Origin: Thermoplasmata archaeon
GTDB lineage: Archaea > Thermoplasmatota > Thermoplasmata > Halarchaeoplasmatales > Halarchaeoplasmataceae
Assembly: GCA_046484045.1 (NCBI GenBank)
Contig: JAWOBZ010000080.1
Location: 28,630-92,629, forward strand
Length of the DNA stretch: 64,000 nucleotides
Direction of reading: 5' to 3'
The notes beneath the pieces are model-generated. The model worked only from the letters and a program-made list of their open reading frames with translations. It did not search any database and was not told the origin of the DNA. Made by a program: the position numbers and the translations under genes. Position 1 is the first letter of the stretch; each line of letters starts with the position of its first letter. Below, in pieces: positions 11,579 through 62,347 of the stretch.

Positions 11579-11809
11579 ATGATGCGTGCCACCTTGACAC
11601 TCGATAAAAAGCACTTGGATAAGAAGATGCTGGGTGCTTTGGAGCCCGAAGTAGAAGAGGGCATGAATCGGGTAAAGGCCAGCATCGAACACGATCCGCC
11701 AAGGATCTTGATAGAGGCAGAGGACAGCAGAGCTCTTAGAGCTGCTTTGAACTCTTACCTCAGATGGCTCGGAATAACTGACGAAATATCAGATAAATAC
11801 GCTAGATAA
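11579..11809 (+). CDS. KEOPS complex subunit Pcc1-like
   Basis: The 76-aa product matches the Pcc1 pattern ATLTL...EAEDSRALRAALNSYLRWL. It has the conserved position between rpoP and pfdB. Confidence 0.55.
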   Translation: MMRATLTLDKKHLDKKMLGALEPEVEEGMNRVKASIEHDPPRILIEAEDSRALRAALNSYLRWLGITDEISDKYAR

Positions 11810-11821
11810 GGAGGAAATATT

Positions 11822-12196
11822 ATGGTAGCATCACAGGAAGAATTACAAAACGAAATCGCAAAGGCACAACAACTCCAACAGCAGCTGCAGAACGTTCTCT
11901 CACAGAAGCAGCAGATGGAGATCAAGAAGAACGACCTTGAAAGAGCTCTTGAAGAGATCAAGGACCTCGAAGAAGATACTCCAATGTATCGGAATGTCGG
12001 GGAAAATATTCTCATCAAGGTGGAAGATCGGGGAAAATTGATCGAAGACCTCGAGGAACAGGTCGAATCCACCGAAGTGAGATTAAAGTCGTTTTCAAGG
12101 CAGGAAGAAAAATTACGAAACAACTTCCAAGAACTACAAAAAGAATTGAGTGCCAAACTCAGTGGAGTACAACCTGGTCCACAGACCGGGGGATAG
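11822..12196 (+). CDS. pfdB: Prefoldin subunit beta
   Basis: 124-aa coiled-coil protein with a central beta-hairpin (NVGENILIKVED) and Gln/Glu-rich helices. Confidence 0.8.
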   Translation: MVASQEELQNEIAKAQQLQQQLQNVLSQKQQMEIKKNDLERALEEIKDLEEDTPMYRNVGENILIKVEDRGKLIEDLEEQVESTEVRLKSFSRQEEKLRNNFQELQKELSAKLSGVQPGPQTGG

Positions 12197-13138
12197 ATGG
12201 GTTTACCCGAAGGGAAAAAAACGCTCTTCTTGAGTCATCAGAATGCAGACCCAGATGCAGTCGGTTGTCTGTATTTTCTACAGAGTCGGTATAGAGGAGA
12301 TATAGGTCTACCAGACGAGCCCGATAAAAGAGGGAAGAGGTTGGCTGATTATCTAGAGATGGAATACACTATTTGTCCCTCTCCTGAGGAGTACGAGCAG
12401 ATCGTGGTTGTCGATACTCCGGACCCTAAACAGCTCGAACCGATACCGATCGTTGAGGAAAAAACTACGGTTATAGATCACCACAGAGCAAATCTATGGG
12501 CGGGATGGGATGTCGAGATGATATATGAAGACAGGGGATCGTGTGCCGAGATAATCTACGAGATGGTCAAACCGAGAGATATGACGGAAAAAGAGGTCTT
12601 TGCACTCACCGCAGGCATATTGACGGATACATCGTACCTAAATCGTGCCGACGAGGGAACTTTTCGTATATTGTCAGAACTGTTTTCTCGCTCCGAGATA
12701 ACCATATCCCAGGTTAAAAGAGAGCTGTTTAAAAAAAGGACCTACTCCGAGAAGATATGCAGGTTGAAGGGAGCCAAAAGGAGCTCTTTCCAGAAGGTCA
12801 ACGGTTACCTTATCGCCTATACAAAAGTAAATTCATTCGAATCCTCTGCATGTGATATACTCTTGAAGGCCGGGGCGGATGTTGCCTTCACGGTATCTGA
12901 AAGAGATGATGGGATAATAATATCGGGAAGAACTCGAGATTCTATGCTTGAATTGGGGATGGACCTAGGAGCGATAATGAAGGTGGTTTCATCTGCAAAA
13001 GAAAGTGCCTCCGGAGGAGGACATCCCGGAGCGGCGGTTTTCAAAGGTAACTGCAACTCGGAACAAATTCTAAGAGAGCTCCTCGCCAAGGTCACGGAAG
13101 AGATAAAGAAGAACGGATGGTACCGGCGTAAGGATTGA
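12197..13138 (+). CDS. DHH/DHHA1 family phosphoesterase (NrnA-like nanoRNase/pAp phosphatase)
   Basis: DHH-region His/Asp motifs (LSHQNADPDAVG, VIDHH) and the DHHA1 GGGH motif (SGGGHPGAA) are present. Confidence 0.75.
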   Translation: MGLPEGKKTLFLSHQNADPDAVGCLYFLQSRYRGDIGLPDEPDKRGKRLADYLEMEYTICPSPEEYEQIVVVDTPDPKQLEPIPIVEEKTTVIDHHRANLWAGWDVEMIYEDRGSCAEIIYEMVKPRDMTEKEVFALTAGILTDTSYLNRADEGTFRILSELFSRSEITISQVKRELFKKRTYSEKICRLKGAKRSSFQKVNGYLIAYTKVNSFESSACDILLKAGADVAFTVSERDDGIIISGRTRDSMLELGMDLGAIMKVVSSAKESASGGGHPGAAVFKGNCNSEQILRELLAKVTEEIKKNGWYRRKD

Positions 13139-13140
13139 TA

Positions 13141-14214
13141 TTATCTCTCCAAATTTTTCTGCAGTTCTTTGAGATTATCTGGATTGACTTCGAAGAATCT
13201 TCTAACTGGTTCTAATAACTCGGAGAGGACATTTGCTACACCCTGCTTCAGATCTGCTGGGTGCAGTTCTTCGTTGACGTATGCATTTTCCAATTCTTCA
13301 TACGAGTCAAAGTGCATGTCACCACCCCACTTCTCCGGCCTATCGATATGAAGTTCACCGTTTTCAGGGAACACGATGAACCTACACATCTCTAAAATCG
13401 GGTTCCCTTCTACTTCCGGAGGGCAGTACGCCCCGTTGATCTTTTTCTCGATATCTTCGGGATCGTCGTGGATGAATATACAAGACTCCGGATCGCTTTT
13501 GCTCATCTTGCCTTCTGTCACAGAGTCCATCCTACCACCGCCCTTGAGACCGGACAAAATCGGTGTGTGTAGAGCTATGGGTTTCTTCCATCCCAGCTTA
13601 TCAGCGGTGTCCCTAGCCAGCATGTGTGCCCTTCTCTGGTCGATACCGGCATAGGCTACATCGACATCCAGTACGAAGATGTCGGTTGCCTGAAGTGATG
13701 GATATATCAGCATGGAGCTGTCTGCCTCCGTTTCATCGGTTTCTCTACCCATGATATCTACTGCCCTTCTTATCCTAGCTACCGAGTTAGCTTTTGCAAC
13801 TCTGAGCACTTTCCCCCAGTAATCCATTTTATCCATGATCTCACTTGCGAATATGAACTCGGTCTTTTTTGGATCGACTCCAAGGGCTAGAAAAGAATCG
13901 ATCAGGTATTTACCGCAGGTTTTTATGGTGTCTATGTCACCATTTAGCTTATCGTTTATGTATGCATGCCAGTCCGCTAGTAATATCTTGACGTCGAACC
14001 CGGCCTCCTGCATCTCTTTGATCTTACTGGCGCAGACCATCCCCTGTCCTACGTGCATAAGACCGGACGGCTCGAAACCGATATAAACCGATGGATTCTC
14101 TTTCTCTTCCAGCAATTCTTCCAGCTCTTCTTCCGTTACAACTTCCTCGACGTTGTGCATTACCAGCTCTAGCCTTTCTTCTATATCCATCGGCACGGGA
14201 TATATCGTGTACAA
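13141..14214 (-). CDS. tyrS: Tyrosyl-tRNA synthetase, archaeal class Ic (TyrRS/TrpRS family)
   Basis: A HIGH-like motif (IGFEPSGLMHVGQG) and KMSKS are present. The overall architecture resembles archaeal TyrRS (ILLADWHAY, AYCP..VEGNPI, RPEKWGGD, ELHPADLK). TrpRS is not fully excluded. Confidence 0.6.
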   Translation of the reverse strand: MYTIYPVPMDIEERLELVMHNVEEVVTEEELEELLEEKENPSVYIGFEPSGLMHVGQGMVCASKIKEMQEAGFDVKILLADWHAYINDKLNGDIDTIKTCGKYLIDSFLALGVDPKKTEFIFASEIMDKMDYWGKVLRVAKANSVARIRRAVDIMGRETDETEADSSMLIYPSLQATDIFVLDVDVAYAGIDQRRAHMLARDTADKLGWKKPIALHTPILSGLKGGGRMDSVTEGKMSKSDPESCIFIHDDPEDIEKKINGAYCPPEVEGNPILEMCRFIVFPENGELHIDRPEKWGGDMHFDSYEELENAYVNEELHPADLKQGVANVLSELLEPVRRFFEVNPDNLKELQKNLER

Positions 14215-15578: not shown

Positions 15579-15735
15579 TATACGGGTATCTTTTGAATGA
15601 AATCATAATAGTAGATAAATGAATTTAAGTTATAAAACCGGTCAGCGGTTTCGTGGGAAATCGTGCAACGATTCCACTATACGAATCGAAATCCTACGGA
15701 TTTCGATGAGTAAGTGGGGTTTTGTGAAACAAAAC

Positions 15736-15810
15736 GCCACTATAGCTTAGCTCGGCTAAAGCGATGGTTTCGTAAACCATAGACCGTGGGTTCAAATCCC
15801 ACTAGTGGCT
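15736..15810 (+). tRNA. tRNA-Thr (anticodon CGU); no encoded CCA
   Basis: Hand-folded cloverleaf. Acceptor stem gccacta/tagtggc, anticodon stem atggt/accat with loop ttCGTaa, T-arm gtggg-ttcaaat-cccac. Confidence 0.85.
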
Positions 15811-15826
15811 TCCTCATTACTTTACA

Positions 15827-15840
15827 AGACCGTGGGTTCA
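15827..15840 (+). repeat. 14-nt direct repeat of the tRNA-Thr variable/T-arm segment (agaccgtgggttca), 17 nt downstream of the tRNA
   Basis: The sequence is identical to 15781-15794, which lies inside the tRNA. Confidence 0.8.
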
Positions 15841-15942
15841 CGAGCAAGAACACATTCTTGCGAGCTGTTGGAAGCTCTGCTTCCTATCCTCCACCCAATC
15901 AATTTTTATACTAATTTCATACTGTAGCAAGAGGTAAGACGG

Positions 15943-16416
15943 ATGCGCAGATACATATCTCTCTCGGGAAATTACTGGAAGACGCTCAACGGTCTTTGGG
16001 CAGTACTCAAAGAGAGCGACTTCCGCCCGGAAGAGGTCGTACTGATAACAGAGAAAAAATCGATGAATAAAGCGAAGAGGATCCAGAGGGACATGAAGAT
16101 ACTGATGGACAGCTACGACCTGCCGGAGGAAGTTGGGATAAAAAAAGTGGGCAACTCGGATTACAACGGAACTTCGAAGATCGTGACTGGACTCATCAAG
16201 GATAACCTGGAAGGGGATAATAAAAACGCACTGGACCTCACCGGAGGCAGTAAATTGATGGTCGCCGCCGCTCTTTTCACTCCAGATACAGGCAAGATAG
16301 ACCATATATTCTTCCTGGATTTCGATGAAGATGATGGCATAGAACTTCCTTATCCCGATATACCCCACGGATCCGTAGAACTCAAGGATCTAGTGGAAGA
16401 AAGGAGGCGGGTATAG
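15943..16416 (+). CDS. CARF-like (Rossmann-fold ligand-sensor) domain protein, standalone
   Basis: The N-terminal strand/loop ISLSGNYWKTLNG and the DLTGGSKLM motif match the two conserved CARF signatures (hxSxxG... and [DN]xTGG[TS]KxM). An AGAGGT RBS lies 8 nt upstream. The gene abuts the next gene (stop at 16416, ATG at 16417). Confidence 0.5.
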   Translation: MRRYISLSGNYWKTLNGLWAVLKESDFRPEEVVLITEKKSMNKAKRIQRDMKILMDSYDLPEEVGIKKVGNSDYNGTSKIVTGLIKDNLEGDNKNALDLTGGSKLMVAAALFTPDTGKIDHIFFLDFDEDDGIELPYPDIPHGSVELKDLVEERRRV

Positions 16417-17502: not shown

Positions 17503-19647
17503 CTAGGGTTTTTTTATTTCGTAACGCAATTTACTCTCTAGATAACCGAAGGGTGCCAGTATCTCTCCGCCGACTCTATACAGATATCTTTCGTAGTAAG
17601 AGGTATCGTAATATTCATCGTGATAGCCCACTATAGACACCTTGTTTTTGTAGTTCTTACTTTTGGCATCCGTCACCACGTATCGGATCACCTGCCCGGG
17701 ATGCACTCGGATACCGTGTTCTTTGTACTGGAGCAGTGCCGCCTTGGTCTCTGTCATGTGCTCGTACTCCTCCGCACCCTTGGACGTTATCTTGGTGAAG
17801 TGCAGTTCTCCCATGTCGGCTTTCCCAGAGCGTATCTCTCTTGCGTATCTTCTTACTACGTCTAGATATCCATGGATGCCGTCGAATAGTTCTTTTCTGC
17901 TCGTGCAGTCCGACATCTGGCGCAGTATCTCTTTCTGACAGTTCTTGAACAGCGTCGGTGTGTCCCTTCTCCTTGCGTGGATACCTTTGAACTCGAGTTT
18001 ACCGTCCAGCAGTCCGAAATATCGATTCGGCACACCTATCTTCGGATCTCCTTTACTGCCCAGGAACACCACCCATGAGTACTTGCCCTCCTTCTCCAGT
18101 ACTACCTTGGTTTTCTCCTCGACTATGGATAACAACTCTTCCACTCGTTCCTCACCGCCCTTCAACCAAAGAGAGTCCACGATGCCGTGAACAACTTCGT
18201 AGCCCATATCCTGGGCCGTATCGGCGGCTTCCAGCAGTATATCCCTGCCGTAGGCGGTAATACTCTCGTGAACCTCGATGTTGCTGAAACGTGCTTTCTT
18301 GTACCCTGTGTAACCGAAGCAGGTAACCAGCAGCCATTTGAGCACCTTGGCTCTGTCTTTGAAGACTTCGTTATCAGGCGTGGACTTGTAGAGCTGTCTT
18401 CTTTCAACAACCGGCCCTACGACCTTCGGAATAAGTCCTCTCCTTTTATTGCAGACCTTGTACCCCAGCTCAGGGACTACGTGATGATCACCGCAGGTGC
18501 ACCCCAGAGTCTCTGGCGAGAGGTTGTACTTGTCGATGATAGAGGGATACATGCTGGCGAAGTCCAGCTTGATCAGGTCTTCGTGAACGCCGATTATCGG
18601 AGAGTAGATGTGCCCGCCTCTGTCTGAGAGTATCAGCTGTCTCATTGTCTTGAAGCGCTCGGTGATGTTCTTCTTCCACGGTATCAGGTATCCGTCTTTC
18701 ATCGCCTGGGCGATCTCCATCGCATCGATGGCACTACCCGGACTTCGGCGGGAGAGCCTCTGCAGGGGGATCTTTGACAACCTGGCGATCTCTATGAGGC
18801 CGTCGATGCCTCCTTCGCGGTACATGAAAGAGCTTTGTTCGTCTATGTGTATGCGGCCCTTGAGTGTGTATGTAGGCGGTTTGTAGAGCACCCTGCCATA
18901 GGAAACGTAAGATGAACCCTGCCTGGGGGAGTGCATCGAACGCTCTCGTCCAAGGCATAAGGACACCTCGTGAAGTTCACTCCGATAAGCAAGATAAGGT
19001 ATCAAAAACGTGTCTCCGCCGGAGGTGATGACTATATCTGGATCTATGTTTTTGATACCGTCGTTCAGGTCTTTCAGTATACTCTCTTCGTCACCGCGTA
19101 TATCCATATCATCCAGTGCTGCTGATCGGAGTGGATCGTCCATCCTAGGTAAACCATCAGATTCCGTTTCTACATCCAATCTCACCGTGCGTAGAGGTGG
19201 TTTAGAGTAACGTATATTATCGCTATCCTCCAGCTCCCGCCATCCGTGGTTCTTCTCGACCAGTGAAAAAGTGCTGATGTCGTTCTCTATGAGATATCTC
19301 TGGCCCAGCGGTATGTCGACGTTGTAGAAAAGGTATTTCTGGTAGCCGTTGAAGAAATCCAAAGCATCCGCGTTCTTTCTGGGATCGAAAACTCTACCGG
19401 GTGAAACACGCAGAACATCCCTTTCTTTTCTATCGTGGATATCCGTTATCCTCTTCTCCGAACAGGTCTCGAAACCCATCTTCTCGTAGTGCATTTCGGC
19501 TTCACGGTGATCTCCGTCTTTAGCTCTCAAGAAAAAGACCGGGTCGTAATCGACCAAGACCTTGTGGCAGTCCTTCTTAGTCCGGATCCAGAGGACCATC
19601 TTCCCCTTTTTCAAGTCGGGGTAGATGTCCAATATCCATCCCTTCAT
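17503..19647 (-). CDS. polB: Family B DNA polymerase with substituted catalytic residues (PolB2-like, probably inactivated)
   Basis: The N-terminus MKGWILDIYPDLKKGKMVLWIRT is archaeal PolB-like. Exo I DVETE is intact. The Exo II region DPDIVITSGGDTFLIPYL has L where the catalytic Asp is expected. Motif A DFASMYPSII is intact. Motif B KWLLVTCFGYTGY has lost the conserved N and S. Motif C reads HGIVDS instead of YxDTDS. Confidence 0.8.
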   Translation of the reverse strand: MKGWILDIYPDLKKGKMVLWIRTKKDCHKVLVDYDPVFFLRAKDGDHREAEMHYEKMGFETCSEKRITDIHDRKERDVLRVSPGRVFDPRKNADALDFFNGYQKYLFYNVDIPLGQRYLIENDISTFSLVEKNHGWRELEDSDNIRYSKPPLRTVRLDVETESDGLPRMDDPLRSAALDDMDIRGDEESILKDLNDGIKNIDPDIVITSGGDTFLIPYLAYRSELHEVSLCLGRERSMHSPRQGSSYVSYGRVLYKPPTYTLKGRIHIDEQSSFMYREGGIDGLIEIARLSKIPLQRLSRRSPGSAIDAMEIAQAMKDGYLIPWKKNITERFKTMRQLILSDRGGHIYSPIIGVHEDLIKLDFASMYPSIIDKYNLSPETLGCTCGDHHVVPELGYKVCNKRRGLIPKVVGPVVERRQLYKSTPDNEVFKDRAKVLKWLLVTCFGYTGYKKARFSNIEVHESITAYGRDILLEAADTAQDMGYEVVHGIVDSLWLKGGEERVEELLSIVEEKTKVVLEKEGKYSWVVFLGSKGDPKIGVPNRYFGLLDGKLEFKGIHARRRDTPTLFKNCQKEILRQMSDCTSRKELFDGIHGYLDVVRRYAREIRSGKADMGELHFTKITSKGAEEYEHMTETKAALLQYKEHGIRVHPGQVIRYVVTDAKSKNYKNKVSIVGYHDEYYDTSYYERYLYRVGGEILAPFGYLESKLRYEIKKP

Positions 19648-19897
19648 CTTTTAGCCTCCTTTCCAACCTGTCCAGGACGAGTTCGTGCTCAAGTAGTATG
19701 GAGATGAAAACCGATTCCATGGGATCGCTGTTGGCCTGGTACTGAGCGGCGGAGGCGTGCCTCTTCGCTTTTGTCATGAGCTCGTCGAATCTCTCACGCT
19801 CTTCCTTCCTGAGTGCTCGCCTGAACTTGCTCCATTCCGCTATTATGCTGTCCAGCTCCTGGCGGAACGTGGGAACGCTCTTACCCACCGCTCTCAC
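19577..19897 (-). CDS. Hypothetical small helical protein, operonic between the RadB-like gene and polB
   Basis: The 106-aa ORF overlaps the radB-like stop by 17 nt and the polB start by 70 nt. The polB RBS (AGGAGG) lies inside it. Its product has amphipathic-helix character and there is no homology call. Confidence 0.35.
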   Translation of the reverse strand: MRAVGKSVPTFRQELDSIIAEWSKFRRALRKEERERFDELMTKAKRHASAAQYQANSDPMESVFISILLEHELVLDRLERRLKDEGMDIGHLPRLEKGEDGPLDPD

Positions 19898-20366
19898 CCC
19901 CGTGATCTAAGAACAGTTCCGGCTTCTTATCTGCGACCACGCAGTAGAGCGAGAATTCGTCCACCGTACGCTTCAGCTCTTTGACCCCTGCAGAGCACAG
20001 CCAGATACCCTCGTCTTCGTTCATGTCGTCGTCTTGGAAGCGAGATGAGAAATCTATCAGGCCCAGGAACGATATGTCACCGCTGGTCTCCACTATCTTC
20101 CTCACGTCCTTAACCATGTTCTCTAGCTGGTAAGCGGTGAAGCCTCTGCCTACTATGGTCCTTTTGAGCACGTTGTTCTGGTCGTAACCGTACTTTTTGC
20201 AGATCCTGACCATCCAGTACGGATCTATCCTGGCGCTGCCGTCGATGACCAGGGCTCTGCCTCCGTTCTCTCCTATGCAGCGTACCGCTAGAGCGGTGAC
20301 TATCTGATGCTTCGTGGTCCGGAAGGCGCGTATCTCCCCTCTGTGCAAAGGATACTCCGCACTCAT
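19881..20366 (-). CDS. RadB/RecA-superfamily-like small protein with a degenerate Walker A
   Basis: It aligns by eye to the archaeal RadB core (VIDGSARIDP ~ VDTEGGFSP; FLGLIDFSSRF ~ Walker B hhhhDS). The P-loop position reads AFRTTKHQI and has no GxxxxGK[ST]. There is a TATA-like ttatac ~30 nt upstream of the ATG, suggesting a leaderless start. Confidence 0.5.
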   Translation of the reverse strand: MSAEYPLHRGEIRAFRTTKHQIVTALAVRCIGENGGRALVIDGSARIDPYWMVRICKKYGYDQNNVLKRTIVGRGFTAYQLENMVKDVRKIVETSGDISFLGLIDFSSRFQDDDMNEDEGIWLCSAGVKELKRTVDEFSLYCVVADKKPELFLDHGGESGG

Positions 20367-20438
20367 GTAATATCATAATTTAGCACTAAAGTATAAGAAA
20401 AGTATAGGTGGGGGGTGAAGTGAAAGTGATCCACTTTT

Positions 20439-21005
20439 TCAAGGTGTTATAACTGTTCCGTTTATGCTTTTTGAGGATCCACTAGTAGGGCACGTTTCGT
20501 ATGGCCGCCTGAGTACTTGGTCGGGCCGTTTTCCATCGGGAATATCTCTATTTATTTCGAATCGTGGAAATCCCTCTAAATCCTGGCAATCTATCTTGAA
20601 CGTCCATCTTACGATCTTCATAGTTTTATCCGTACCAAGAGGTATCTCAAAGGAATCGATCAAACTTTTATTTTCGCCTGTCCGCAATTCAAAAACTATT
20701 TTGCCACCACCTTTTTGCCTCAAGGTGAAGCCGTATCCGTAGGTTCTTTTCATATCTGCTGCGAATCCATCAGTCAATCTTATCAATATTTTATTCCATC
20801 CATCTACACTATTGTTCAGAATGACGGTTACTTGCACCGTTTTCTCAATTGTATCTAGATCAATATCTCCAGTCGTTCCCACACCTATACTAGAGGCTCG
20901 TTTAATCTTAGCAGGGGTATCGCCACCGTGGACCGCCGTAGAAGTTGAAATAAGGATACAGAGTACGGCGGACAGGGTGAAGAAGTTCAGGATGATATGT
21001 TTCAC
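20439..21005 (-). CDS. Secreted/lipoprotein-like hypothetical protein
   Basis: N-terminal signal peptide MKHIILNFFTLSAVLCILISTSTAVHG. No recognisable catalytic motifs. Confidence 0.5.
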   Translation of the reverse strand: MKHIILNFFTLSAVLCILISTSTAVHGGDTPAKIKRASSIGVGTTGDIDLDTIEKTVQVTVILNNSVDGWNKILIRLTDGFAADMKRTYGYGFTLRQKGGGKIVFELRTGENKSLIDSFEIPLGTDKTMKIVRWTFKIDCQDLEGFPRFEINRDIPDGKRPDQVLRRPYETCPTSGSSKSINGTVITP

Positions 21006-30648: not shown

Positions 30649-31977
30649 TTAAGAAACAATTACAACTGAAATGTCGTTGACGTTCGTGTTGCTTTCGAAC
30701 TCGATGGAATCACCCAACTCATCGAAGAAAATCTCAGTTTGATGTTCGTTAAGAGCTTTTTCTGCGTTCAGTGAGGAACGGTATATGGTCATACCATCGG
30801 CTATAGCTCCCGATTTTCCCACCCCATCCACACCGTCTGTATCTATACTTGCCACGACTATGTCCCTTCCTCTTATCTCTTGGGCAAAACTTAGAACGAA
30901 CTCCCTGTTCGGTCCGCCTTTCAACTCTGTATCCATCTTTTTTTTCATCTCCACCGTCATCTCACCACCGATTATCAGTGCCGCCGGTGTTTTTATCGGG
31001 TTGCCGCTTTTCTGTATCTCCACAGCTATACTTGCCAGAGGTTTCGCCACCTCGGTCGCTATACCCTGATTCTCCGATGTCAAAAGCCAGTTGGTAAGGT
31101 TTTTACTTTCTGCAACGGCTTTTACTTTCTGGAGCGCGATCATGTTGCTCCCCACGAGGAAGTTATTCGCTTCGACCCTCTTCGGTGTCTCTTCTATCTC
31201 ACCGCTCTTACCCATGGAAAGATGGACCCTGATAGATTCTGATACTTTATCCCACAAGTCATATCTCTTTATGACCGCCACCGCATCTCCATATGTAGAT
31301 GGATCTGCAACGGTGGGACCGGATGCCACATCGGTCAGCTCATCTCCTACCACGTCGGAGATGATGAGAGAAATTATTTGATTTCCGTCACTGCACAAAT
31401 CAGCTGACCTTCCACCTTTCACCTTGGATAGATGTTTTCTCACCGTGTTGATCTCACTGACGTTGGCACCGCTCTCCAACATCATCTCATTCAGTTCTAT
31501 AATATCTTTGAGTTCGATATCGTCGTGGGGTAACGTGTAGAGTGATGATCCGCCTCCGGATACCAAGAAGATGATAATGCTGTTCTGTGCGGAACTTATC
31601 TTATCGTATATCTCTTTGGAATGTCTAATATTTTCTTCTGAAGGGAGTGGGTGCGTACCGGATCTCACTTCCACGTTTAGATCCCCTGCATCCATGTGTT
31701 TTTTATTGGTGATGATAAGCCCGTCATCTATTTCGAGCTCTGAGAAGGGTTTCGCCATGGGCACGGAGGACTTTCCTATACCGAACAGCAGGATCTTATC
31801 GTAAGAATCTAACTCGAATGTTTCGTCTTTGACTTTTAAAACGTTATCTTCGATGGATATACTATCTTCAACTAATTTCTCTGGATCGGCTCCTTTTACA
31901 CCTGCCATGAGCATCTCGATCGCTATCTCTCGCATCTCCGGAATTTCCATATCACGAGTGGTAATTACAAGTAGCAA
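30649..31977 (-). CDS. Glycerate 2-kinase, MOFRL family (GckA-like)
   Basis: DUF4147/MOFRL-type motifs (IFLVSGGGSSL, IIGGEMTVEM). Length is 442 aa. Confidence 0.7.
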   Translation of the reverse strand: MLLVITTRDMEIPEMREIAIEMLMAGVKGADPEKLVEDSISIEDNVLKVKDETFELDSYDKILLFGIGKSSVPMAKPFSELEIDDGLIITNKKHMDAGDLNVEVRSGTHPLPSEENIRHSKEIYDKISSAQNSIIIFLVSGGGSSLYTLPHDDIELKDIIELNEMMLESGANVSEINTVRKHLSKVKGGRSADLCSDGNQIISLIISDVVGDELTDVASGPTVADPSTYGDAVAVIKRYDLWDKVSESIRVHLSMGKSGEIEETPKRVEANNFLVGSNMIALQKVKAVAESKNLTNWLLTSENQGIATEVAKPLASIAVEIQKSGNPIKTPAALIIGGEMTVEMKKKMDTELKGGPNREFVLSFAQEIRGRDIVVASIDTDGVDGVGKSGAIADGMTIYRSSLNAEKALNEHQTEIFFDELGDSIEFESNTNVNDISVVIVS

Positions 31978-32350
31978 AAATATTTTGTGTTCTTTTATCT
32001 ATCGATGTTGAACGAGCTCGTCCAAAAATCACCGGAGATTTTTCTAAAGCTCTTTAAAATCAAAGATTTCAAACGAGCTTATCAGAAATCAAAGATTTCT
32101 AAATGCTCGTTAAAACAAGTTGAACGAGCTTCACAAAATGCTAACGCATTTTCTTCGCCTGCCAAAACAAGTTTGGCAGACCCGGGGGGATTCTGGTCAC
32201 AATCACTCGCTTTGCTCGTGATTCTAACCGCTCGTGAAGCAAAGCTACACCCCCTGCTCGGAATTGTTCACTAAGTTCACAATTCCAACCGTTCATCTAT
32301 TTTTCCAAAATAGACTCACGAACCCAAGGGTTCTCACCCCCTCACATAAA

Positions 32351-32424
32351 CGAGCTCGGGGGGATTCGAACCCCCGTCCATGGCTCCGAAGGCCATAAGG
32401 ATATCCAGACTACCCTACGAGCCC
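32351..32424 (-). tRNA. tRNA-Arg (anticodon UCG); no encoded CCA
   Basis: The reverse complement folds as GGGCTCG...ATGGC-cTTCGGa-GCCAT...GGGGG-TTCGAAT-CCCCC-CGAGCTC-G. It has a G2:U71 wobble and anticodon TCG. Confidence 0.85.
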
Positions 32425-32640
32425 AGAAATGATATAAATCTATGAAGGGACTCATAACCGTCCATGTATTAATAATTTTAATTTATTATTTTTAATTTAT
32501 GGGATGTTCCACGCTATCTTATACGGACGCTATACATCTAGCCACTGCACTAATGGCTGATTGTGATGTTTTGTATACTGGTGATCCAATTTTTAAAGAT
32601 ATAGATGAGATCGAAAACGTAGTTATCCCATGCTAGTTCA

Positions 32641-33117
32641 TCAAAGCAGCGCCCGGATATCCTCCGCTACCTTATCCAACTGCTCCCTTTCCCTGCGAAT
32701 AAAATGTTTTTTCTTATCGTATTTGAACTCGAAGCCATCTCCCTCGAATCTCGGTACTAGGATGAGGTGATGATGGAAAATCTCCTGACCGGCTTCTTCA
32801 CCGTCAGCTATGAACCAATTTATGCCTTCACTCTTGTAATCCGATCTTATTATGGCATCCGATACTTTTCTAGCGATCTTGGTAATATGAAGGTGGGTTT
32901 CTTCATCCAGATCCTTCAGATAGGGTATGTGCTTTTTAGGTATGACCACCATCTGACCATCGTTAACTGGATAAAGATCCGGGAAGACTATCACTTTGTC
33001 ATCTTCGTATACCAGGCTGACCGGTGATTTCCCTTCTACTATCCTGCAGAACACACATTTAGACTCATCTTCTTTCGTCATGATATCATCAAACTCCTTT
33101 TTGATCACCCAATTCAT
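32641..33117 (-). CDS. HIT-family hydrolase
   Basis: Histidine triad HHHLILVP and an N-terminal CVFCRI nucleotide-binding region. Confidence 0.75.
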   Translation of the reverse strand: MNWVIKKEFDDIMTKEDESKCVFCRIVEGKSPVSLVYEDDKVIVFPDLYPVNDGQMVVIPKKHIPYLKDLDEETHLHITKIARKVSDAIIRSDYKSEGINWFIADGEEAGQEIFHHHLILVPRFEGDGFEFKYDKKKHFIRREREQLDKVAEDIRALL

Positions 33118-33333
33118 GGTATGTCGTCATCCCTCCGTAGATGACCCCAGCTATGCCCATTATGATGATTATGGCGCCTATAATCAAGTTAATAGATCTG
33201 CCCGCCATGGTATCATACCAATTAACTCAAAATATATTAAGTCTCCTAAAAAAATAATGAGTAGCCCCAGGGCGGATTCGAATAAAGATAATATGGGAAA
33301 TTTATATAAATGTGTATGTACATATATGTACCC

Positions 33334-33549
33334 ATGTCAAAGAACATATCTATCTCCGATGATGTATATGAGTGGCTCAAAGAGATGAAGGGTGCCGACA
33401 GCTTTTCATCCATAATCAGAAAATTGGGTAAAGGGGGCAATTTAGAAGACATTAACGGATTGAACATCCTGGAGGACTGGGGTAAGACCAAAAACGAATT
33501 AAAGAAAATGAGCGATAAAGAATGGGAGCGGTTGGAAGATGCTGCTTGA
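33334..33549 (+). CDS. vapB: Putative antitoxin (VapB-like) of the downstream PIN toxin
   Basis: Small (~71 aa) acidic protein whose stop overlaps the vapC start by 11 nt. The internal start at 33334 (MSKNISISDDVYEWL) is preferred over the ORF-track start. Confidence 0.5.
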   Translation: MSKNISISDDVYEWLKEMKGADSFSSIIRKLGKGGNLEDINGLNILEDWGKTKNELKKMSDKEWERLEDAA

Positions 33550-33922
33550 TACTACAGTGATGGTAGACATCGACAGGGGTATAGAAGAGAGAAAGATGGA
33601 TCACCTCATATCTCTATCTCCGCACATAGTTTCATCCGCTACCGTTATGGAGATATCGACCGGGTTCTTCAGATCTGATCGAAAAGCGATATTGTTAGAT
33701 GAGTTCATATCTCCGCTAACTATTATCCCCATCGATCAGAAAGTGGCTAGAAAAGCGGGAAAGATAGCTGCTAACTTGATCGAAAAGGGTAAAAGGATAG
33801 AGATCAACGATCTGTATATAGCTGCCACCGCTCTGTTACATGAAGAAACGATTTTAACTACTGATGTTAAGCATTATAAAAGAATAGAGGGTCTGGAAGT
33901 AGCAAACTGGGGAGATGTGTAG
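33539..33922 (+). CDS. vapC: PIN-domain toxin VapC
   Basis: The first PIN Asp lies in MLLDTTVMVDI. The conserved D/E/D positions fit (LTIIPID, TTDVKHY). Confidence 0.75.
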   Translation: MLLDTTVMVDIDRGIEERKMDHLISLSPHIVSSATVMEISTGFFRSDRKAILLDEFISPLTIIPIDQKVARKAGKIAANLIEKGKRIEINDLYIAATALLHEETILTTDVKHYKRIEGLEVANWGDV

Positions 33923-33934
33923 TGAGTATTACTA

Positions 33935-34387
33935 CTATCGTGGCATAACGATGTATCCTAAGCTCTTAAAATCATCATCAAAAGAAAATATATGTCCGAT
34001 GTCATACTCATCCATATATACCGCCGTACTCCAGTCCACGAAAGATAACTTGTTTTCTTCCCTTTTTAACCTATTCCATACAACTTTAAAATTCAACGAA
34101 GAGAAAGGGTGTATGATGACGTTTGAGTTCAACACCCTCTCTACGATATCCACAGCAGCATCGTAGTTATAATTATAACGAAGAAAGGTATAAGTCTCCT
34201 GTAAAACCATCTCAGACGTGTGTATCGACCCGAAACTGAGTTCGTTCTTTTTATTTCTATCGACAAAGGATCTTGCTTCCTCGTGATGTTTATCTTTTTT
34301 CTCGTTTAAGGCTATCCATGCACTAGTGTCAATAAAAATAGAGGGGTAGTCTCCCGCCATACTTTTACTTCCCGTAAAGTACTTCAT
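33935..34387 (-). CDS. vapC: PIN-domain toxin (second VapC-like)
   Basis: IFIDTSAWIAL is the first PIN motif, and FSFDDDF is the C-terminal acidic motif. An upstream RHH gene overlaps it. Confidence 0.7.
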   Translation of the reverse strand: MKYFTGSKSMAGDYPSIFIDTSAWIALNEKKDKHHEEARSFVDRNKKNELSFGSIHTSEMVLQETYTFLRYNYNYDAAVDIVERVLNSNVIIHPFSSLNFKVVWNRLKREENKLSFVDWSTAVYMDEYDIGHIFSFDDDFKSLGYIVMPR

Positions 34388-34619
34388 CTATTGTAGTATC
34401 TTTTATCTTGGGTTCATCTTCTCTAGGGTTTGAACCGAAGCATGGTGATCTCCAATCTACTTTCTTTTTTTGGACTTCTTTATGAAGCAATTTTCTCAGT
34501 AGAGAGGATATACTCTCATCTTCCTCCTCAGCGATGTTTTTGATAGTTTCAACTTCATCATCTGGAACCTTAGTACTCAATACTTTATCTGACATTGGTA
34601 TGCCAAGGTATACCTCCAT
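34365..34619 (-). CDS. vapB: CopG/RHH-like antitoxin (VapB-like)
   Basis: The 84-aa product has an N-terminal beta strand followed by helices (TKVPDDEVETIKNIAEEEDESISSLLRKLL). It is operonic with the downstream PIN gene. Confidence 0.55.
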   Translation of the reverse strand: MEVYLGIPMSDKVLSTKVPDDEVETIKNIAEEEDESISSLLRKLLHKEVQKKKVDWRSPCFGSNPREDEPKIKDTTIDEVLYGK

Positions 34620-34759
34620 ATAAATATTTTTTCACATCAAATCCTCATATTTTCTTAGCACATATCAAACGCAACAGATTTTAGGCTATTGTAATATCGT
34701 ATAAAATCTGTCCATATATTAAAAACCTAGACAATTATCTATATCTTAGCATTAAAAAG

Positions 34760-34832
34760 TAGCCCCGGGCGGATTCGAACCGCCGTTACGAGGACCAGAA
34801 CCTCGTATGATTGACCACTACACCACGGGGCT
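34760..34832 (-). tRNA. tRNA-Gln (anticodon CUG); no encoded CCA
   Basis: The reverse complement reads AGCCCCG...CGAGG-ttCTGgt-CCTCG...GGCGG-TTCGAAT-CCGCC-CGGGGCT-A. Acceptor, anticodon and T arms form cleanly. Confidence 0.85.
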
Positions 34833-35054
34833 AGTGAACGAAGTGAGCTAGGTCCGTGGAAGGAGGAATCTGTGATTCCTGTGCACCACGGGGAATTTGC
34901 TCTGCAAATTTCCCGAGTTGGTTAGAAGCTCTGCTTCTGACAAACTACGGGGCTTTTTTCTTACTCTCTATTCAGGGCTCTCCGATATCGTAACCCCTTA
35001 AAAATATTATTGGTGCTTATAGCTCGAAAACCAGATTTATATATCCGGAAGTAA

Positions 35055-35270
35055 TTGGTGATTCGATTCACCATGAAGATAACGGAGATGCTCGCCATAG
35101 CTCTATTTGCCACTGGTCTATCTCTAACCGCATGGCTTTTGATCTATTTTATAACCGGTGGGAATAACTCGTTCTTCAGCTCATACTACTCTGCATTGAT
35201 ATTTCCTCCCATCTTCGTAGCTTTGATATTGTTCATCAGATACTTGGCGAGGAAACCAAAAAGGTTATAA
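35055..35270 (+). CDS. Small hypothetical membrane protein (2 TM)
   Basis: The 71-aa product has two hydrophobic segments. Support comes from composition only. Confidence 0.3.
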   Translation: MVIRFTMKITEMLAIALFATGLSLTAWLLIYFITGGNNSFFSSYYSALIFPPIFVALILFIRYLARKPKRL

Positions 35271-35298
35271 TCTTTTTCTTCGAGTGGGTGAAACGTTC

Positions 35299-36300
35299 AT
35301 GAAACTATCGGATTTTGATTACGAACTGGACAAGTCGAAGATAGCCCAGAGACCCATGCGACCCAGGGATGAATCCAAACTCTTCTACCTTAAACGAGGA
35401 GGGCATGAGCACTTGCGATTTCATGATCTACCCGGACTGCTCCAAGAAGGCGACGTTCTGGTGAGAAACAGATCAAAAGTATTCCCGGCACGAGTCAATG
35501 GTAAAAAGGACACGGGAGGAAAGGTCGAGATCCTGTTCTACAGTGAAGTAAAAAAGGGTTGGGAATGCCTCGTTAAAGGCAAGAACATCAAGGAAGGTAG
35601 AGTGCTGGTCGTGGAGGGGGAGACCCTCGAAGTGGTAGAAAATCTGGATGGAGGACATTTTATCTTGAAATCAGACAATATCGAGGAGTTGATCGCCACG
35701 CACGGCGAGATGCCGACGCCACCGTACATAAAAAAAGATCTGGAAGAAATGTCGGAGTACCAGACGATCTACGCAGAAGAAGAAGGTTCCATAGCTGCAC
35801 CCACCGCTGGATTTCATTTTACCCAGGAAGTATTGAATGAGATAAGAGACAAAGGTACGGATATATACGACGTGATACTTCACGTGGGGCCCGGTACATT
35901 CCTCCCGGTGCGAACGGATGATGTTGAAGAGCATGACATGGAGAGAGAATGGTATCGGATACCGGAAGATACCGCAGAAGCGGTCACCAGAGCTAATAAA
36001 GAGGGCAGAAGAGTGGTTTTGGTCGGAACAACGACGGTCAGAGCTATAGAATCCGCGTCGGAGAACGGAGAAGTCAAAGCGGAAGAAGGATGGGCCGACC
36101 TTTTCATATATCCCGGTTATGAATTCCAATCGGGTATGGACCTGCTGCTCACCAATTTCCATTTACCAAAATCCACCCTGATAATGCTGGTGAGCGCCTT
36201 CGTAGGTAGAGAACGTATATTGGACGCTTACAGGGAAGCCGTGGATAAAGACTACAGATTCTACAGCTTCGGGGATGCCATGCTGATCGAGGGGGTATGA
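35299..36300 (+). CDS. queA: S-adenosylmethionine:tRNA ribosyltransferase-isomerase
   Basis: The N-terminus MKLSDFDYELDKSKIAQRP is the canonical QueA start. Its length matches ~340-aa QueA. Its stop overlaps tgt by 4 nt. Confidence 0.8.
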   Translation: MKLSDFDYELDKSKIAQRPMRPRDESKLFYLKRGGHEHLRFHDLPGLLQEGDVLVRNRSKVFPARVNGKKDTGGKVEILFYSEVKKGWECLVKGKNIKEGRVLVVEGETLEVVENLDGGHFILKSDNIEELIATHGEMPTPPYIKKDLEEMSEYQTIYAEEEGSIAAPTAGFHFTQEVLNEIRDKGTDIYDVILHVGPGTFLPVRTDDVEEHDMEREWYRIPEDTAEAVTRANKEGRRVVLVGTTTVRAIESASENGEVKAEEGWADLFIYPGYEFQSGMDLLLTNFHLPKSTLIMLVSAFVGRERILDAYREAVDKDYRFYSFGDAMLIEGV

Positions 36301-37385
36301 TGCTGGAGTTCGAGGTCGAAGAAAAGGACGGAAGAGCTAGAACGGGCGCTATGACGGTCAACGGTAGGAAGGTTAATACACCGCTTTTCATGCCCGTGGC
36401 GACAAGCGGGGACGTTAAAACGCTCATTTCCAGTGATCTGAAAAGCCTCGGAGTCCAAGCCTTGATAACAAACGCCTATCATCTTCTGATGAGACCGGGG
36501 ATCGAGATAATCGAAGAACACGGGGGTCTCCATGAATTCATGAATTGGGACGGAGTCATCTTCACCGACAGCGGGGGGTTCCAGATGATACGCAAGGGTT
36601 TCGATAAAAAGGTAGACAAAAAGGGGGTCCACTTCAAATCCGAGATAAACGGAAAGGAACTCTTCATCTCACCGGAGGAGGACATCGAGATCCAGAAAAG
36701 GCTCGGGTCTGACGTTGCCATGTGCTTGGACTACTGTCCGTCGTATCCAGCGGATCAAGATGAACTCGAGATGTCGGTGGATAGGACGACTAGCTGGGCG
36801 GAGAGATGCAGAAACGTTGACGGGGACATATTTGCCATCTCGCAGGGCGGAACGGATCCAACGTCGCGTGAAAGGAGCTGTCTGGAGTTGAGCGAAATCG
36901 ATTTCCAGGGCTACGCACTCGGCGGGCTGTCGATAGGAGAACCCGCCAGGGACATGTACCGTATGACCGAGATCGCAGACAGTGTATTTCCAGAGGATAG
37001 ACCCCGTTATCTCATGGGACTGGGATCACCCGTAGATATCTTAGAGTCCATAAAAAGAGGTGTGGATATATTCGACAGCGCCTATCCGACCAGGAACGCA
37101 AGGCACGGCACGGTGTTCACCTCTAGAGGCAAGATTAACGTCGAGAAGGGTAGATACCGAAGGGACAAAGGTCCCCTGGACGACAGCTGTGGATGTGAGA
37201 TCTGCGAGAACTACTCCCGAGCATATATCAACCACCTCAGTAGAGCCAACGAGATAACGTGGATGAAGATGACTACCATCCACAACCTGTATTTTATACT
37301 CAAGATGATGGAGGAAGCGAGAGCGTCTATAGCAAGGGGTGAATTCGAGGATTACTTAACAGAATTCAAAAATAATTACGGGTAA
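36297..37385 (+). CDS. tgt: Queuine/preQ1 tRNA-guanine transglycosylase, bacterial-type (no PUA domain)
   Basis: The 362-aa product has FMPVATSG, FTDSGGFQ, GGLSIGEP and the zinc site CGCEICENYSRAYINHL (CxCxxC...H). Confidence 0.85.
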   Translation: MMLEFEVEEKDGRARTGAMTVNGRKVNTPLFMPVATSGDVKTLISSDLKSLGVQALITNAYHLLMRPGIEIIEEHGGLHEFMNWDGVIFTDSGGFQMIRKGFDKKVDKKGVHFKSEINGKELFISPEEDIEIQKRLGSDVAMCLDYCPSYPADQDELEMSVDRTTSWAERCRNVDGDIFAISQGGTDPTSRERSCLELSEIDFQGYALGGLSIGEPARDMYRMTEIADSVFPEDRPRYLMGLGSPVDILESIKRGVDIFDSAYPTRNARHGTVFTSRGKINVEKGRYRRDKGPLDDSCGCEICENYSRAYINHLSRANEITWMKMTTIHNLYFILKMMEEARASIARGEFEDYLTEFKNNYG

Positions 37386-49180: not shown

Positions 49181-50062
49181 ATGCTCGACTACTTGATGTC
49201 CAAGATAGTTTGGATAATCGCCGCAGTGGTGCTCACCGCCTCAGTCATCGGAGTCTACAACTGGCAGAGGCATTCCATGGAAGAGGTGGAGCTCGAAGAG
49301 AGGGCGAAGGGTATCTCGGAGATGGTGAACCGGATCTGCACTACGGACGGAGAGATCAAGCTGTTAGCGTCCAGCAACGAGAGCAGGGATCCAGATATCT
49401 ACTTGGAACCGTCGATAAACGGTCGGGTATATCAGCTGCAGTTCACACCCTCCGGTTTCTACTTAAAACAGGGTGACAAGATCATCTGGAGGGACTTCGT
49501 GGAGAACGTCCACATGATGAACCCTGCGTTGATAGGCGAAAACGATTACTCCCTGGTGAGCCAAGTCGACAGCATCGACCACGACCTGTCGATCTCGTCG
49601 GGTGAAAACTTCTACATCATGTCCAAGGGGTACAACGGGGTCTACGAAGTCTTCATCTACTCGGAAGATTCGGAAGGGGTCGTGGCTGAGACGAAAACGG
49701 TGGGCAGCGTCATAGCGGATTTCTTCCAAGTTAGGCCGTCCAAAGGTAATCTTAGCTACAACAAAACTGCCAACGACACCTTCAAGGGCGATATTACATT
49801 TCAAACGGACTGCCTTTTCCTCAACAACAATACGGAACTGCCGTGTCCCATACCGAAGGTACATCTGTGGAACGTGAGCTCTGAAAATATATCTGATATC
49901 AATATCACCCAGATGGACGAAGAGCACAGTAGATTACAAGTCCATAAGAACGAAAAGGTCCATCTGAAAAGACAGTTGTTATACATCGATGGAAATTTTA
50001 CAGCACATAGATTCATCTACACGGATCAAGCTTCTGTGATCTCTCCGGCGACCAGGTGGTAG
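49181..50062 (+). CDS. Hypothetical N-terminally membrane-anchored protein
   Basis: The N-terminal hydrophobic helix KIVWIIAAVVLTASVIGVY is followed by a ~270-aa extracytoplasmic region with N-glycosylation sequons. Its 3' end overlaps the giant gene by 37 nt. Confidence 0.45.
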   Translation: MLDYLMSKIVWIIAAVVLTASVIGVYNWQRHSMEEVELEERAKGISEMVNRICTTDGEIKLLASSNESRDPDIYLEPSINGRVYQLQFTPSGFYLKQGDKIIWRDFVENVHMMNPALIGENDYSLVSQVDSIDHDLSISSGENFYIMSKGYNGVYEVFIYSEDSEGVVAETKTVGSVIADFFQVRPSKGNLSYNKTANDTFKGDITFQTDCLFLNNNTELPCPIPKVHLWNVSSENISDINITQMDEEHSRLQVHKNEKVHLKRQLLYIDGNFTAHRFIYTDQASVISPATRW

Positions 50063-61092: not shown

Positions 61093-61185
61093 TTCATGTA
61101 TTATGTTATATTGTGAAATAAATCATTTAAATTTCAAATTCGAAACAGAGTTCGAAATGAAGGGGGGGCGTGTGAGGAAATTGAT

Positions 61186-62147: not shown

Positions 62148-62347
62148 ATTACCACCTGGTATAATATTTTACCAAGTGGTATTAATAGTTACCGGTTTGA
62201 GATACTAAACGTGAACTTTGTGGAGTGGCGTGTTTATCGAAACAGAGTGCGAAATGAAGGAGGGAGACAAACACTTTTCCAAAATCTGTGATGATATTTT
62301 TTTGAGTGTGATTTTGAGTTGTCTTAAGTTTTTAGTATTTACTCTGA

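Follow-up and report, generated by a model that had tools for sequence, protein, structure and literature searches.

Partial duplications of a tRNA gene are the usual signature of integrative elements that target tRNAs. In archaeal integrated plasmids and viruses, bacterial cis-mobilizable elements and tycheposons, terminal tRNA copies bound the insert and an intact tRNA is kept; the tycheposon arrays of Prochlorococcus are tandem sets of such elements (10.1101/2020.12.28.424599). A related pattern was analysed in a 64,000-nucleotide (nt) stretch of contig JAWOBZ010000080.1 (the window) from an uncultured Thermoplasmata archaeon, in which short hairpin-bearing sequences lie between tRNA genes and partial copies of their ends. 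The sites beside tRNA-Thr and tRNA-Gln are members of one family of non-coding units of 50-165 nt (E-type units). Because the number of units at a tRNA differs between sister strains, these look like a small, undescribed tRNA-anchored repeat family and not like scars around the block of genes with a family-B DNA polymerase (PolB) that follows tRNA-Thr. A literature search found no description of tRNA-anchored hairpin units of this kind.

With the tRNA-targeting elements the units share the terminal tRNA copies and the intact tRNA, tandem stacking at the tRNA, a content that varies between strains, and toxin-antitoxin (TA) cargo nearby. They differ in being gene-less, in having repeats of anything from 7 to ~50 nt with no integrase found, in the position of the module (within a split T-loop copy, or antisense at the tRNA 5' end) and in a conserved, covarying two-hairpin architecture. 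Integron cassettes that lack an open reading frame (ORF) or carry TA genes are also known. The units resemble integron cassette arrays in their polar short cassettes and in one-strand hairpins that are conserved more in structure than in sequence; integrons with structure-defined attC sites have been reported in Archaea (PMC9668308). Attachment (att) repeats and tandem accretion at tRNA genes are the closest known systems, integron cassette arrays being close by logic only.

For this comparison, tRNA genes were called with ARAGORN and Rfam, and RNA families were searched against Rfam 15. Related loci carry L-numbers and include the sister strains or metagenome-assembled genomes (MAGs) L002, L051, L048 and L039 and the metagenome contigs L005, L014 and L027, which hold a tRNA-Lys. 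Relatives of the PGK and QueA of the source organism include those of Natronoplasma- and Saliniplasma-like MAGs. A covariance model, R1, was built on eight units; its E-values are rough owing to a short calibration. R1 and a structural descriptor were run over the window and all fetched loci (234.5 kb for R1), and the genome and metagenome scans were single-shot. The tRNA genes of the window and the structures beside them are as follows.

15674-15735, + strand: structured 5' leader of tRNA-Thr, an acceptor-stem-like unit and then the hairpin GUUUUGUGAAACAAAAC (15719-15735)
15736-15810, + strand: tRNA-Thr (CGU), ARAGORN; Rfam tRNA 70.6 bits
15781-15794 and 15827-15840, + strand: 14-mer AGACCGTGGGTTCA, exact in both places
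15811-15826, + strand: tRNA trailer (X), homologous to the trailer copies after each tRNA-end repeat in L002 and L051
15827-15840, + strand: partial tRNA-Thr copy (A') with variable loop, T-stem 5' strand and UUCA, identical to 15781-15794
15841-15891, + strand: truncated E-type unit; R1 38.9 bits, E 4e-6
32005-32178, - strand: further short hairpin units at tRNA-Arg, each closing with the tRNA-Arg 3' terminus (GA)GCTCG
32074-32129, - strand: Arg unit a, with GUUCAACUUGUUUUAAC, GAGCAUUU, AGAAAUC-UUUG-AUUUCU, GAUAA and GCUCG; R1 51.4 bits
32179-32341, - strand: large E-type unit 3' of tRNA-Arg, absent from the sister strain L048
32350-32425, - strand: tRNA-Arg (UCG), ARAGORN and Rfam
34759-34832, - strand: tRNA-Gln (CUG), ARAGORN and Rfam
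34833-34883, + strand: extra module at tRNA-Gln, absent from L039
34884-34959, + strand: E-type unit, opposite strand to tRNA-Gln; R1 41.6 bits, E 1e-6

In its own orientation, a unit reads hairpin 1, CGAG, a GUU linker, hairpin 2 (RGAAKC-loop-GMUUCY), GAC and a copy of the tRNA terminus, and in every case the order is tRNA gene end, unit, copy of that same end. The terminal copy is the T-loop-to-3' end at tRNA-Thr, tRNA-Arg and tRNA-Lys, and the antisense 5' end at tRNA-Gln. Units flank all three tRNAs of the window (Thr, Arg and Gln) and a tRNA-Lys in other metagenomes. An earlier note on this DNA had suggested that the Thr and Gln sites are two scars of one element family or a conserved tRNA-associated small RNA, and had held that the scar reading would fail if the motif occurred downstream of many tRNAs. 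The presence of units beside every tRNA of the window goes part of the way there, and makes the motif a general tRNA-flank feature of the lineage instead of two isolated scars. The tRNA-Arg unit at 32179-32341 (- strand), with further units to ~32005 and the same architecture, had not been noticed there.

Restriction to tRNA flanks was seen with each structural search. The descriptor found the two-hairpin module solely beside tRNAs, and all 15 R1 matches fell in tRNA flanks, including ones outside the training set (L027 twice, L005, the second L002 copy, L048 unit d, and an antisense unit 5' of the L002 tRNA-Thr). Of the 22 distinct perfect hairpins of at least 7 bp in the window, 11 lie within ~1 kb of tRNA flanks. 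The composite pattern GGGTTCRYGAG-N(10-30)-YGARCNNTTGGAA matched twice, at the Thr and Arg flanks, against no match in 100 shuffles. Single words were less telling: the shared 13-mer GAAGCTCTGCTTC gave 3 matches within the window at up to 2 mismatches, with 1.76 expected, although one 2-mismatch match did point to the third site, 3' of tRNA-Arg, and a significance test of the 14-mer was circular because the pattern came from the sequence itself. With word statistics within the window this weak, significance rests on the composite architecture and on comparison with other genomes.

Sequence is also shared with tRNA-Lys units on unrelated metagenome contigs. Of the 28 loci from a metagenome scan, 24 were coincidental matches within coding sequence; the true four were L005, L014 (the same as L018) and L027. 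In L014, which belongs to a different metagenome lineage, the tRNA-Lys unit (189-214) has 26 identical nt, GGTGAGAACCCTTGGGTTCGTGAGTC, in common with the Arg unit of the window (32310-32335, - strand). Beside this identity, the strand of the closing helix is GGGGG in the window Arg unit and GUGGG in the L014 Lys unit, each tracking the T-stem 3' strand of its own tRNA. The hairpin GGAATCTGTGATTCC is likewise common to the Gln flank of the window and L014.

At tRNA-Thr, the elements reported in the earlier note (both 14-mer copies, the hairpins, cgagctgttggaagctctgcttcc at 15861-15884 (+) and, at the Gln site, cgagttggttagaagctctgcttct at 34914-34938 (+), caccacgggg, ctacggggc and T6) were all confirmed in place. 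The two 14-mers, at a distance of 32 nt, enclose nothing beyond the tRNA end and trailer; the A' piece recurs in L002 (twice) and in L051 with a 1-nt deletion. In sister strains, a complete Thr unit comprises the trailer, GACGUGGGUUCA, CGAG-hairpin 1-CGAG, CGUUU, hairpin 2 (GGAAUAAC..GUUAUUCC), GAACUG and AAUCCCACUAGUGGCU. In effect, the segment of tRNA-Thr that begins at the variable loop and runs through the 3' end is repeated, and ~65 nt interrupt this copy between T-loop positions 57 and 58. The number of units is zero in L034, L032 and L036, one in L051 (bounded by a ~30-nt repeat), two identical tandem copies in L002, and one truncated copy in the window. The earlier note had asked for related genomes to be searched for further copies, and these orthologous units in sister genomes are what was found.

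The truncated unit begins with CGAG, hairpin 1 (GCAAGAA-caca-TTCTTGC, 15844-15861), CGAG (15861-15864) and the linker CUGUU, and continues into the hairpin GGAAGC-UCU-GCUUCC (15870-15884). Its last part, GCTTCCTATCCTC (15879-15891), is a remnant of the tRNA end (GCT) and trailer that matches L002 GCTTCCTATTCTC at 12 of 13 positions, and comparison with L051 and L002 shows a deletion that has removed the remainder of hairpin 2, GAACUG and, from the tRNA-end copy, the AATCCCACTAGTG part. In a BLASTN comparison of L002 with the window, homology breaks exactly at 15873/15892; together with the remnant, this places the GGAAGC-UCU-GCUUCC hairpin at a deletion junction. The 24-nt motif that had been taken to unite the Thr and Gln sites is therefore partly family homology (CGAG, the GUU linker and RGAA) and partly secondary convergence on the hairpin 2 consensus. 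The two sites are homologous family members, as proposed, but the identity of their GAAGC-TCT-GCTTC core is largely secondary, its 3' arm at tRNA-Thr being tRNA end and trailer.

Upstream of tRNA-Thr, the leader unit has the form CCACUAUAC-GA-hairpin(15685-15707)-GA-GUAAGUGG and copies tRNA-Thr positions 2-9 together with an acceptor 3'-like strand. Acceptor-stem-like 5' units were also found upstream of tRNA-Thr in L002/L051 and in L036, the last with two. These generally consist of tRNA positions 1-10, GA, a hairpin, GA and the acceptor 3'-like strand; the hairpin sequences are unrelated among the window, L002/L051 and L036, and the pair adjoining GA switches between C-G and G-C.

The Gln unit starts with CACCACGGGG, an antisense copy of the tRNA-Gln 5' end (caccacgggg at 34884-34893 copies 34821-34830), followed by hairpin 1 (34889-34915, 12 bp), CGAG, UUGGUU, hairpin 2 (AGAAGC-UCU-GCUUCU, 34924-34938) and GACAAA. 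It ends with CUACGGGGCU, a second antisense copy of the tRNA 5' end (ctacggggc, 34945-34953), and T6 (34954-34959). In L039/L038 the orthologous unit has 49 nt between 10-nt repeats, CTACGGGGCT, which are antisense to the first 10 nt of the tRNA. The extra module between the Gln unit and the tRNA carries the hairpin AGGAAUC-UGU-GAUUCCU (34864-34880), whose sequence is identical to that of hairpin 2 in the L014 tRNA-Lys unit.

At tRNA-Arg the order parallels that at tRNA-Thr, with GGGUUCG-UGAG, hairpin 1, UGAACGGUU and a hairpin beginning GGAAUU. The large unit runs from GGGGG-UGA through GAACCC-UU-GGGUUC, GUGA, hairpin 1 and UGAACGGUU to hairpin 2 (GGAAUUGU..ACAAUUCC), more hairpins, CCAG and a diverged tRNA-end copy, AAUCCCCCCGGGUC; the tRNA-Arg end copies in the window are AATCCCCCCGGGTC and (GA)GCTCG. 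In L048, tRNA-Arg is followed by four short units, each closing with the last 7 nt of the tRNA, GAGCTCG. Units a and b are common to both genomes, whereas the window is without unit c and most of unit d, and L048 has no counterpart of the large tRNA-proximal unit of the window. At tRNA-Lys(CUU) in L014, L027 and L005 there are, respectively, one unit, at least two, and one plus a partial one, with variable insertions inside hairpin 2. The 71-nt L014 unit is bounded on both sides by AATCCCCACAGGCCCG and a T-run, and the L005 unit by a ~50-nt repeat. The contigs L027, L048 and L049 start or stop inside tRNA-flank arrays or partial tRNA copies; short-read assemblies seem to be interrupted by these repeats.

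Structural conservation was examined across the eight units. Pairing in hairpin 2, taken together with the GUU/GAC extension, reaches 95.8%, and both sides have changed at 4 of the 9 pairs. The covariation score of hairpin 2 is 0.50 as against 0.17 in shuffles, was attained by none of 500 shuffles, and collapsed in slid controls; a U·G pair at the base of the helix is conserved in seven of the eight units. In hairpin 1, a double change from A-U to G-C separates the window from L002/L051. Read in unit-sense orientation, the stems hold 24 G·T against 3 A·C juxtapositions, a count that is indicative only because it takes in orthologous and some overlapping stems. This excess suggests that one strand folds, as RNA or as single-stranded DNA (ssDNA). 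Fold prediction gives a three-way junction for the Thr units and a four-way junction for those of Lys and Arg, with GUGGG/CCCAC or GGGGG/CCCCC as the closing helix and z-scores of -2.4 to -5.6. GA..GA flanks hairpin 1 and the hairpins of the 5' units. In predicted folds it forms a symmetric 2x2 loop that lacks the 3-nt bulge beside tandem sheared G·A pairs by which a K-turn is defined, although the sequence may still be compatible with a K-junction geometry. Hairpin interiors are entirely exchanged between sister genomes. The AT-rich tracts that follow the tRNA-end copies are duplicated tRNA trailers; they were rejected as promoters of the units, there being no TATA box at a consistent spacing upstream of the units.

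The explanation that we favour, tentatively, is that the units are miniature non-coding modules that are gained, duplicated, truncated and lost at tRNA termini through recombination at the tRNA-end repeats. Modules would accumulate by an att-like site-specific process or by microhomology-driven accretion, the newest lying next to the tRNA, and would so build short arrays that vary between sister strains; the hairpins would matter as a single-stranded structure, RNA or ssDNA, on the sense strand of the module. The data show the family and its anatomy, its confinement to tRNA flanks, its polymorphism, and the covariation and strand asymmetry of its stems, whereas the recombination route, a possible trans-acting recombinase and the nature of the folded strand are inferred. 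Several observations weigh against this. Neither an integrase nor any other recombinase turned up in Pfam scans that covered the neighbours of the units in L002 and L014 and all but about a dozen (syntenic-core) ORFs of the window. The repeats vary from 7 to ~50 nt, unlike the product of a single enzyme with a fixed staggered cut, and in the tRNA-Thr, tRNA-Arg and tRNA-Lys units the T-arm copy is split by the module (GGGUUCR / module / AAUCCC), an arrangement that simple att-core integration does not predict. Some stems have a tRNA-derived piece as one arm (CGGGG..CCCCG, GAACCC..GGGUUC and GGAAGC..GCUUCC), which fits fold-back copying or selection on RNA. As to direct evidence of movement, no excision products, and no pairs of empty and filled sites with exact junctions within one population, were seen. 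Scans of viral and proviral contigs for unit copies or an autonomous parent element gave nothing real, and the sample is small, consisting of the three tRNAs of the window genome and a handful of relatives.

If mobile or recombining mini-modules are indeed involved, tRNA genes would anchor tiny non-coding structured cassettes besides gene-sized islands, of a kind missed by annotation, and the locus would be a tractable case for the origin of tRNA-end repeats that have no integrase nearby. More speculatively, and in our judgement improbably, halophilic Thermoplasmata may possess a system, not described before, that uses tRNA termini as anchors for polar arrays of miniature structured modules. 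As in integron and clustered regularly interspaced short palindromic repeat (CRISPR) arrays, each new unit may then enter beside the tRNA while the tRNA end is duplicated. The modules of such arrays may be expressed small RNAs or folded ssDNA recombination substrates, and may fold into a three- or four-way junction with a T-stem-like closing helix, a GA-hairpin-GA arm and an RGAAKC hairpin with the conserved U·G.

Two other origins for the units were weighed against recombining modules. They might be functional structured RNAs tied to tRNA genes, as leader or trailer domains or as small independent RNAs, which is possible but rather doubtful. In that case, the tRNA-like closing helices (a T-stem-like P1, and an acceptor-like stem in the 5' units) and the GA-hairpin-GA modules would serve processing, protein binding or regulation, with RNase P, tRNase Z or an L7Ae-type recognition of tandem G·A as candidate partners, and the arrays would vary because accessory RNA genes are duplicated and lost; the units, if expressed, would be a new archaeal family of small RNAs, linked to tRNAs and closed by helices of tRNA origin. 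Covariation of hairpin 2 with its conserved U·G pair, the compensatory change in hairpin 1, the C-G/G-C swaps beside GA in the 5' units (window, L002 and L036), the 24-to-3 strand asymmetry and the significant z-scores of the junction folds all agree with this, yet hairpin interiors are wholly exchanged between sister genomes, the units are dispensable (absent from L032 and L034, and variable among sister strains), and no Rfam family was matched even at E up to 10. The hairpin-2-like hairpin re-formed at the deletion junction of the window Thr unit also speaks for this reading, but the GA-hairpin-GA modules lack the 3-nt K-turn bulge in predicted folds, and the Gln unit is antisense to its tRNA, so that tRNA mimicry cannot be general. 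As regards transcription, tRNA-Thr and tRNA-Gln appear on a reading of the sequence to lack a proximal TATA box, so that their long structured leaders would have to be transcribed, and T-runs follow the terminal repeat in several units; against this, no consistent promoter precedes the units, and a T6-T8 run stands between tRNA and unit in L014 and L005. Such a run is a strong archaeal terminator.

It is less probable still that the arrays are non-functional mutational by-products of slippage and of template switching or fold-back synthesis at stalled or broken tRNA genes. Slippage would yield tandem partial copies of the tRNA end, template switching would yield perfect hairpins that copy adjacent sequence, and both would turn over rapidly. 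Many stems are indeed perfect and young, with interiors exchanged between sister strains, and some have tRNA-derived arms (in L039 GGGGCTTTTTTG-TT-CAAAAACCCC; in the window GGAAGC-TCT-GCTTCC and GAACCC-TT-GGGTTC). A single event of template switching is documented to make both hairpins and changes that look compensatory (PMC8794818), and the units resemble template-switch hairpins in arms that copy adjacent sequence, in wholesale stem replacement and in such one-step "compensatory" changes; the failure to find a recombinase fits as well. A mutational process of this sort, however, predicts neither conserved linker and base motifs nor sequence shared between tRNA loci. It leaves unexplained the multi-part architecture shared at four tRNA species, the 26-nt Arg/Lys identity across organisms (the T-arm accounts for only about half of these nt), the conservation of the hairpin 2 base and linker (CGAG..GUU..GAC and U·G, in seven of the eight units) and the G·T strand bias.

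The reading given in the earlier note, in which the copies at 15827-15840 and 34884-34893 are attL/attR scars and 15.84-21.1 kb would be one large insertion, we consider very unlikely. It has in its favour that partial tRNA duplications fit the usual signature of an integrative element, with a tandem tRNA-anchored case on record (10.1101/2020.12.28.424599), that a real att-like pair bounds a TA island at tRNA-Gln, and that at deeper divergence (L032 and L036) the genes after tRNA-Thr differ. When the sites were tested as att scars, tRNA-Thr, tRNA-Arg and tRNA-Gln each proved to have a direct repeat of one end of the intact gene, and the segment that it bounds was variable in relatives; to that extent the att interpretation holds, but only ~50-110 nt of non-coding sequence lie between the flagged repeats, and no large element. 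No integrase-bearing element, for which the earlier note had proposed a search, was found by Pfam scans in the window or in unit-carrying loci. The note had also placed the start of a CARF-PIN/PolB2 block exactly at this site; the block proved to be conserved, its genes for proteins of 157 and 357 amino acids (aa) and PolB directly following tRNA-Thr in L002, L051 and L034, so that the comparison of 15.84-21.1 kb with relatives gave no sign of an insertion. In L034 these genes begin 13 nt after a tRNA without any repeats, and L036 retains a 154-aa/357-aa pair beside CysRS, with PolB missing. No second copy of the tRNA-Thr 3' end was found anywhere in the window, and no GC anomaly across the PolB block. 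The 157-aa/357-aa/PolB block is thus ordinary conserved chromosome, separate from the units, and shows how partial tRNA copies left by units can pass for the scars of a large insertion.

17503-21005 in the window, and 12875-15657 in L034: PolB neighbourhood, the 357-aa protein having only a weak PIN_4 match

In some relatives, a family-B polymerase (714 aa) and a Rad51/KaiC-like protein of 161 aa, plus DUF8156 in L034, adjoin the 157-aa/357-aa pair. No match to Cas1 was obtained near PolB, the neighbourhood being conserved without it.

A number of described element and RNA classes were also considered and rejected. Integron attC sites were set aside as no integrase and no attI were found, the repeats at the junctions are specific to each tRNA where GTTRRRY would be required, and hairpin 2 spans 15-21 nt as against at least 55 nt for attC with R''/L''/L'/R' boxes; GTTRGAA matches at 6 of 7 positions, but in the wrong place. 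A casposon or mini-casposon, which would have a Cas1-type integrase, terminal inverted repeats and a 14-15-bp target duplication at a tRNA 3' end, was suggested by the length of the 14-mer and the nearby PolB, but there is no Cas1, PolB is chromosomal, the 14-mers enclose the tRNA tail alone, and repeat lengths vary. The units are like miniature inverted-repeat transposable elements (MITEs), REP/BIME and PATE (IS200/IS605 derivatives) in being short, non-coding and hairpin-forming with strand-specific folding; however, they have no terminal inverted repeats and no fixed target duplication (7-50 nt), and the copies diverge and are confined to tRNA ends. Insertion between T-loop positions 57 and 58 recalls the T-loop bulge-helix-bulge introns of Thermoproteales and other archaea and split or permuted tRNAs, and some copies allow a 4-bp helix (UUCR with CGAG or UGAA) to be drawn beside an AAU bulge of 3 nt; in L005 and the Arg unit the helix has 3-4 bp. 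Here, though, the host is a 3' fragment with an intact, intron-less tRNA upstream, the second bulge and flanking helix are not conserved, minimum-energy folds pair otherwise, and the Gln and small Arg units lie outside T-loops. Rfam returned tRNAs only for the whole window at the gathering threshold, and nothing credible for 15600-15950 and 31950-35060 at E up to 10, which rules out known ribozymes, riboswitches (including a preQ1 riboswitch upstream of queA) and the C/D and H/ACA families. On manual reading, box sequences and spacing do not suit C/D or H/ACA guide RNAs, and the CUGANGA/GAAA core of a hammerhead or three-way-junction ribozyme is absent.

A classical att-like pair does exist at tRNA-Gln, on the side opposite to the Gln hairpin unit, where the T-loop-to-3' end of the tRNA (TTCGAATCCGCCCGGGGCTAC) recurs with one inserted base. 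The suggestion that att-type tRNA repeats are present in this genome is thereby borne out, as the tRNA-Gln gene and its copy bound a low-GC TA island.

33262-33283, - strand: distal att-like repeat, a copy of the tRNA-Gln T-loop-to-3' end, TTCGAATCCGCCCTGGGGCTAC (21/22 nt)
33284-34758, unstranded: low-GC (0.39-0.41) island of 1.48 kb between the tRNA-Gln 3' repeats, with two PIN/antitoxin (VapBC-like) pairs

No integrase was found in the 1.48-kb island. L039 carries the same island, with a 36-nt distal copy at the same place and at least one further copy beside an N-masked stretch. The tRNA flanks in these genomes are recombination hot spots, as seen from the TA island at tRNA-Gln, an island in L002 and a HIT-family gene. 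In L002, a strain-specific insertion of 1.76 kb (11757-13519) directly follows the tRNA-Thr units and carries a DUF5678-like small ORF, a retropepsin-like aspartyl protease (153 aa) and a ParE-like toxin with an antitoxin; its distal junction has no visible tRNA-end repeat. The HIT-family gene (32641-33117), between the tRNA-Gln partial copy and tRNA-Arg, is missing in L048/L039, where the partial copy lies ~190 nt from tRNA-Arg (compared over L048 1-220 and L039 1-125). In place of the HIT gene, L048 has a duplicated leader and the first 13 nt of tRNA-Arg.

Elsewhere in the window, 35284-37385 holds a bacterial-type queuosine operon of QueA (Queuosine_synth, E 7e-123) and TGT (E 2e-136), a pair conserved in many Thermoplasmatota MAGs. 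Judged from these genes, the operon suggests queuosine besides or instead of archaeosine-type modification. A TA or defence cluster at 59519-62842 comprises AbiEi/AbiEii, HEPN with a Polbeta-type nucleotidyltransferase, and a DUF3368 PIN-like protein (with UPF0175 in L052). On the - strand, 50026-55956 is a very long ORF of 1976 aa.

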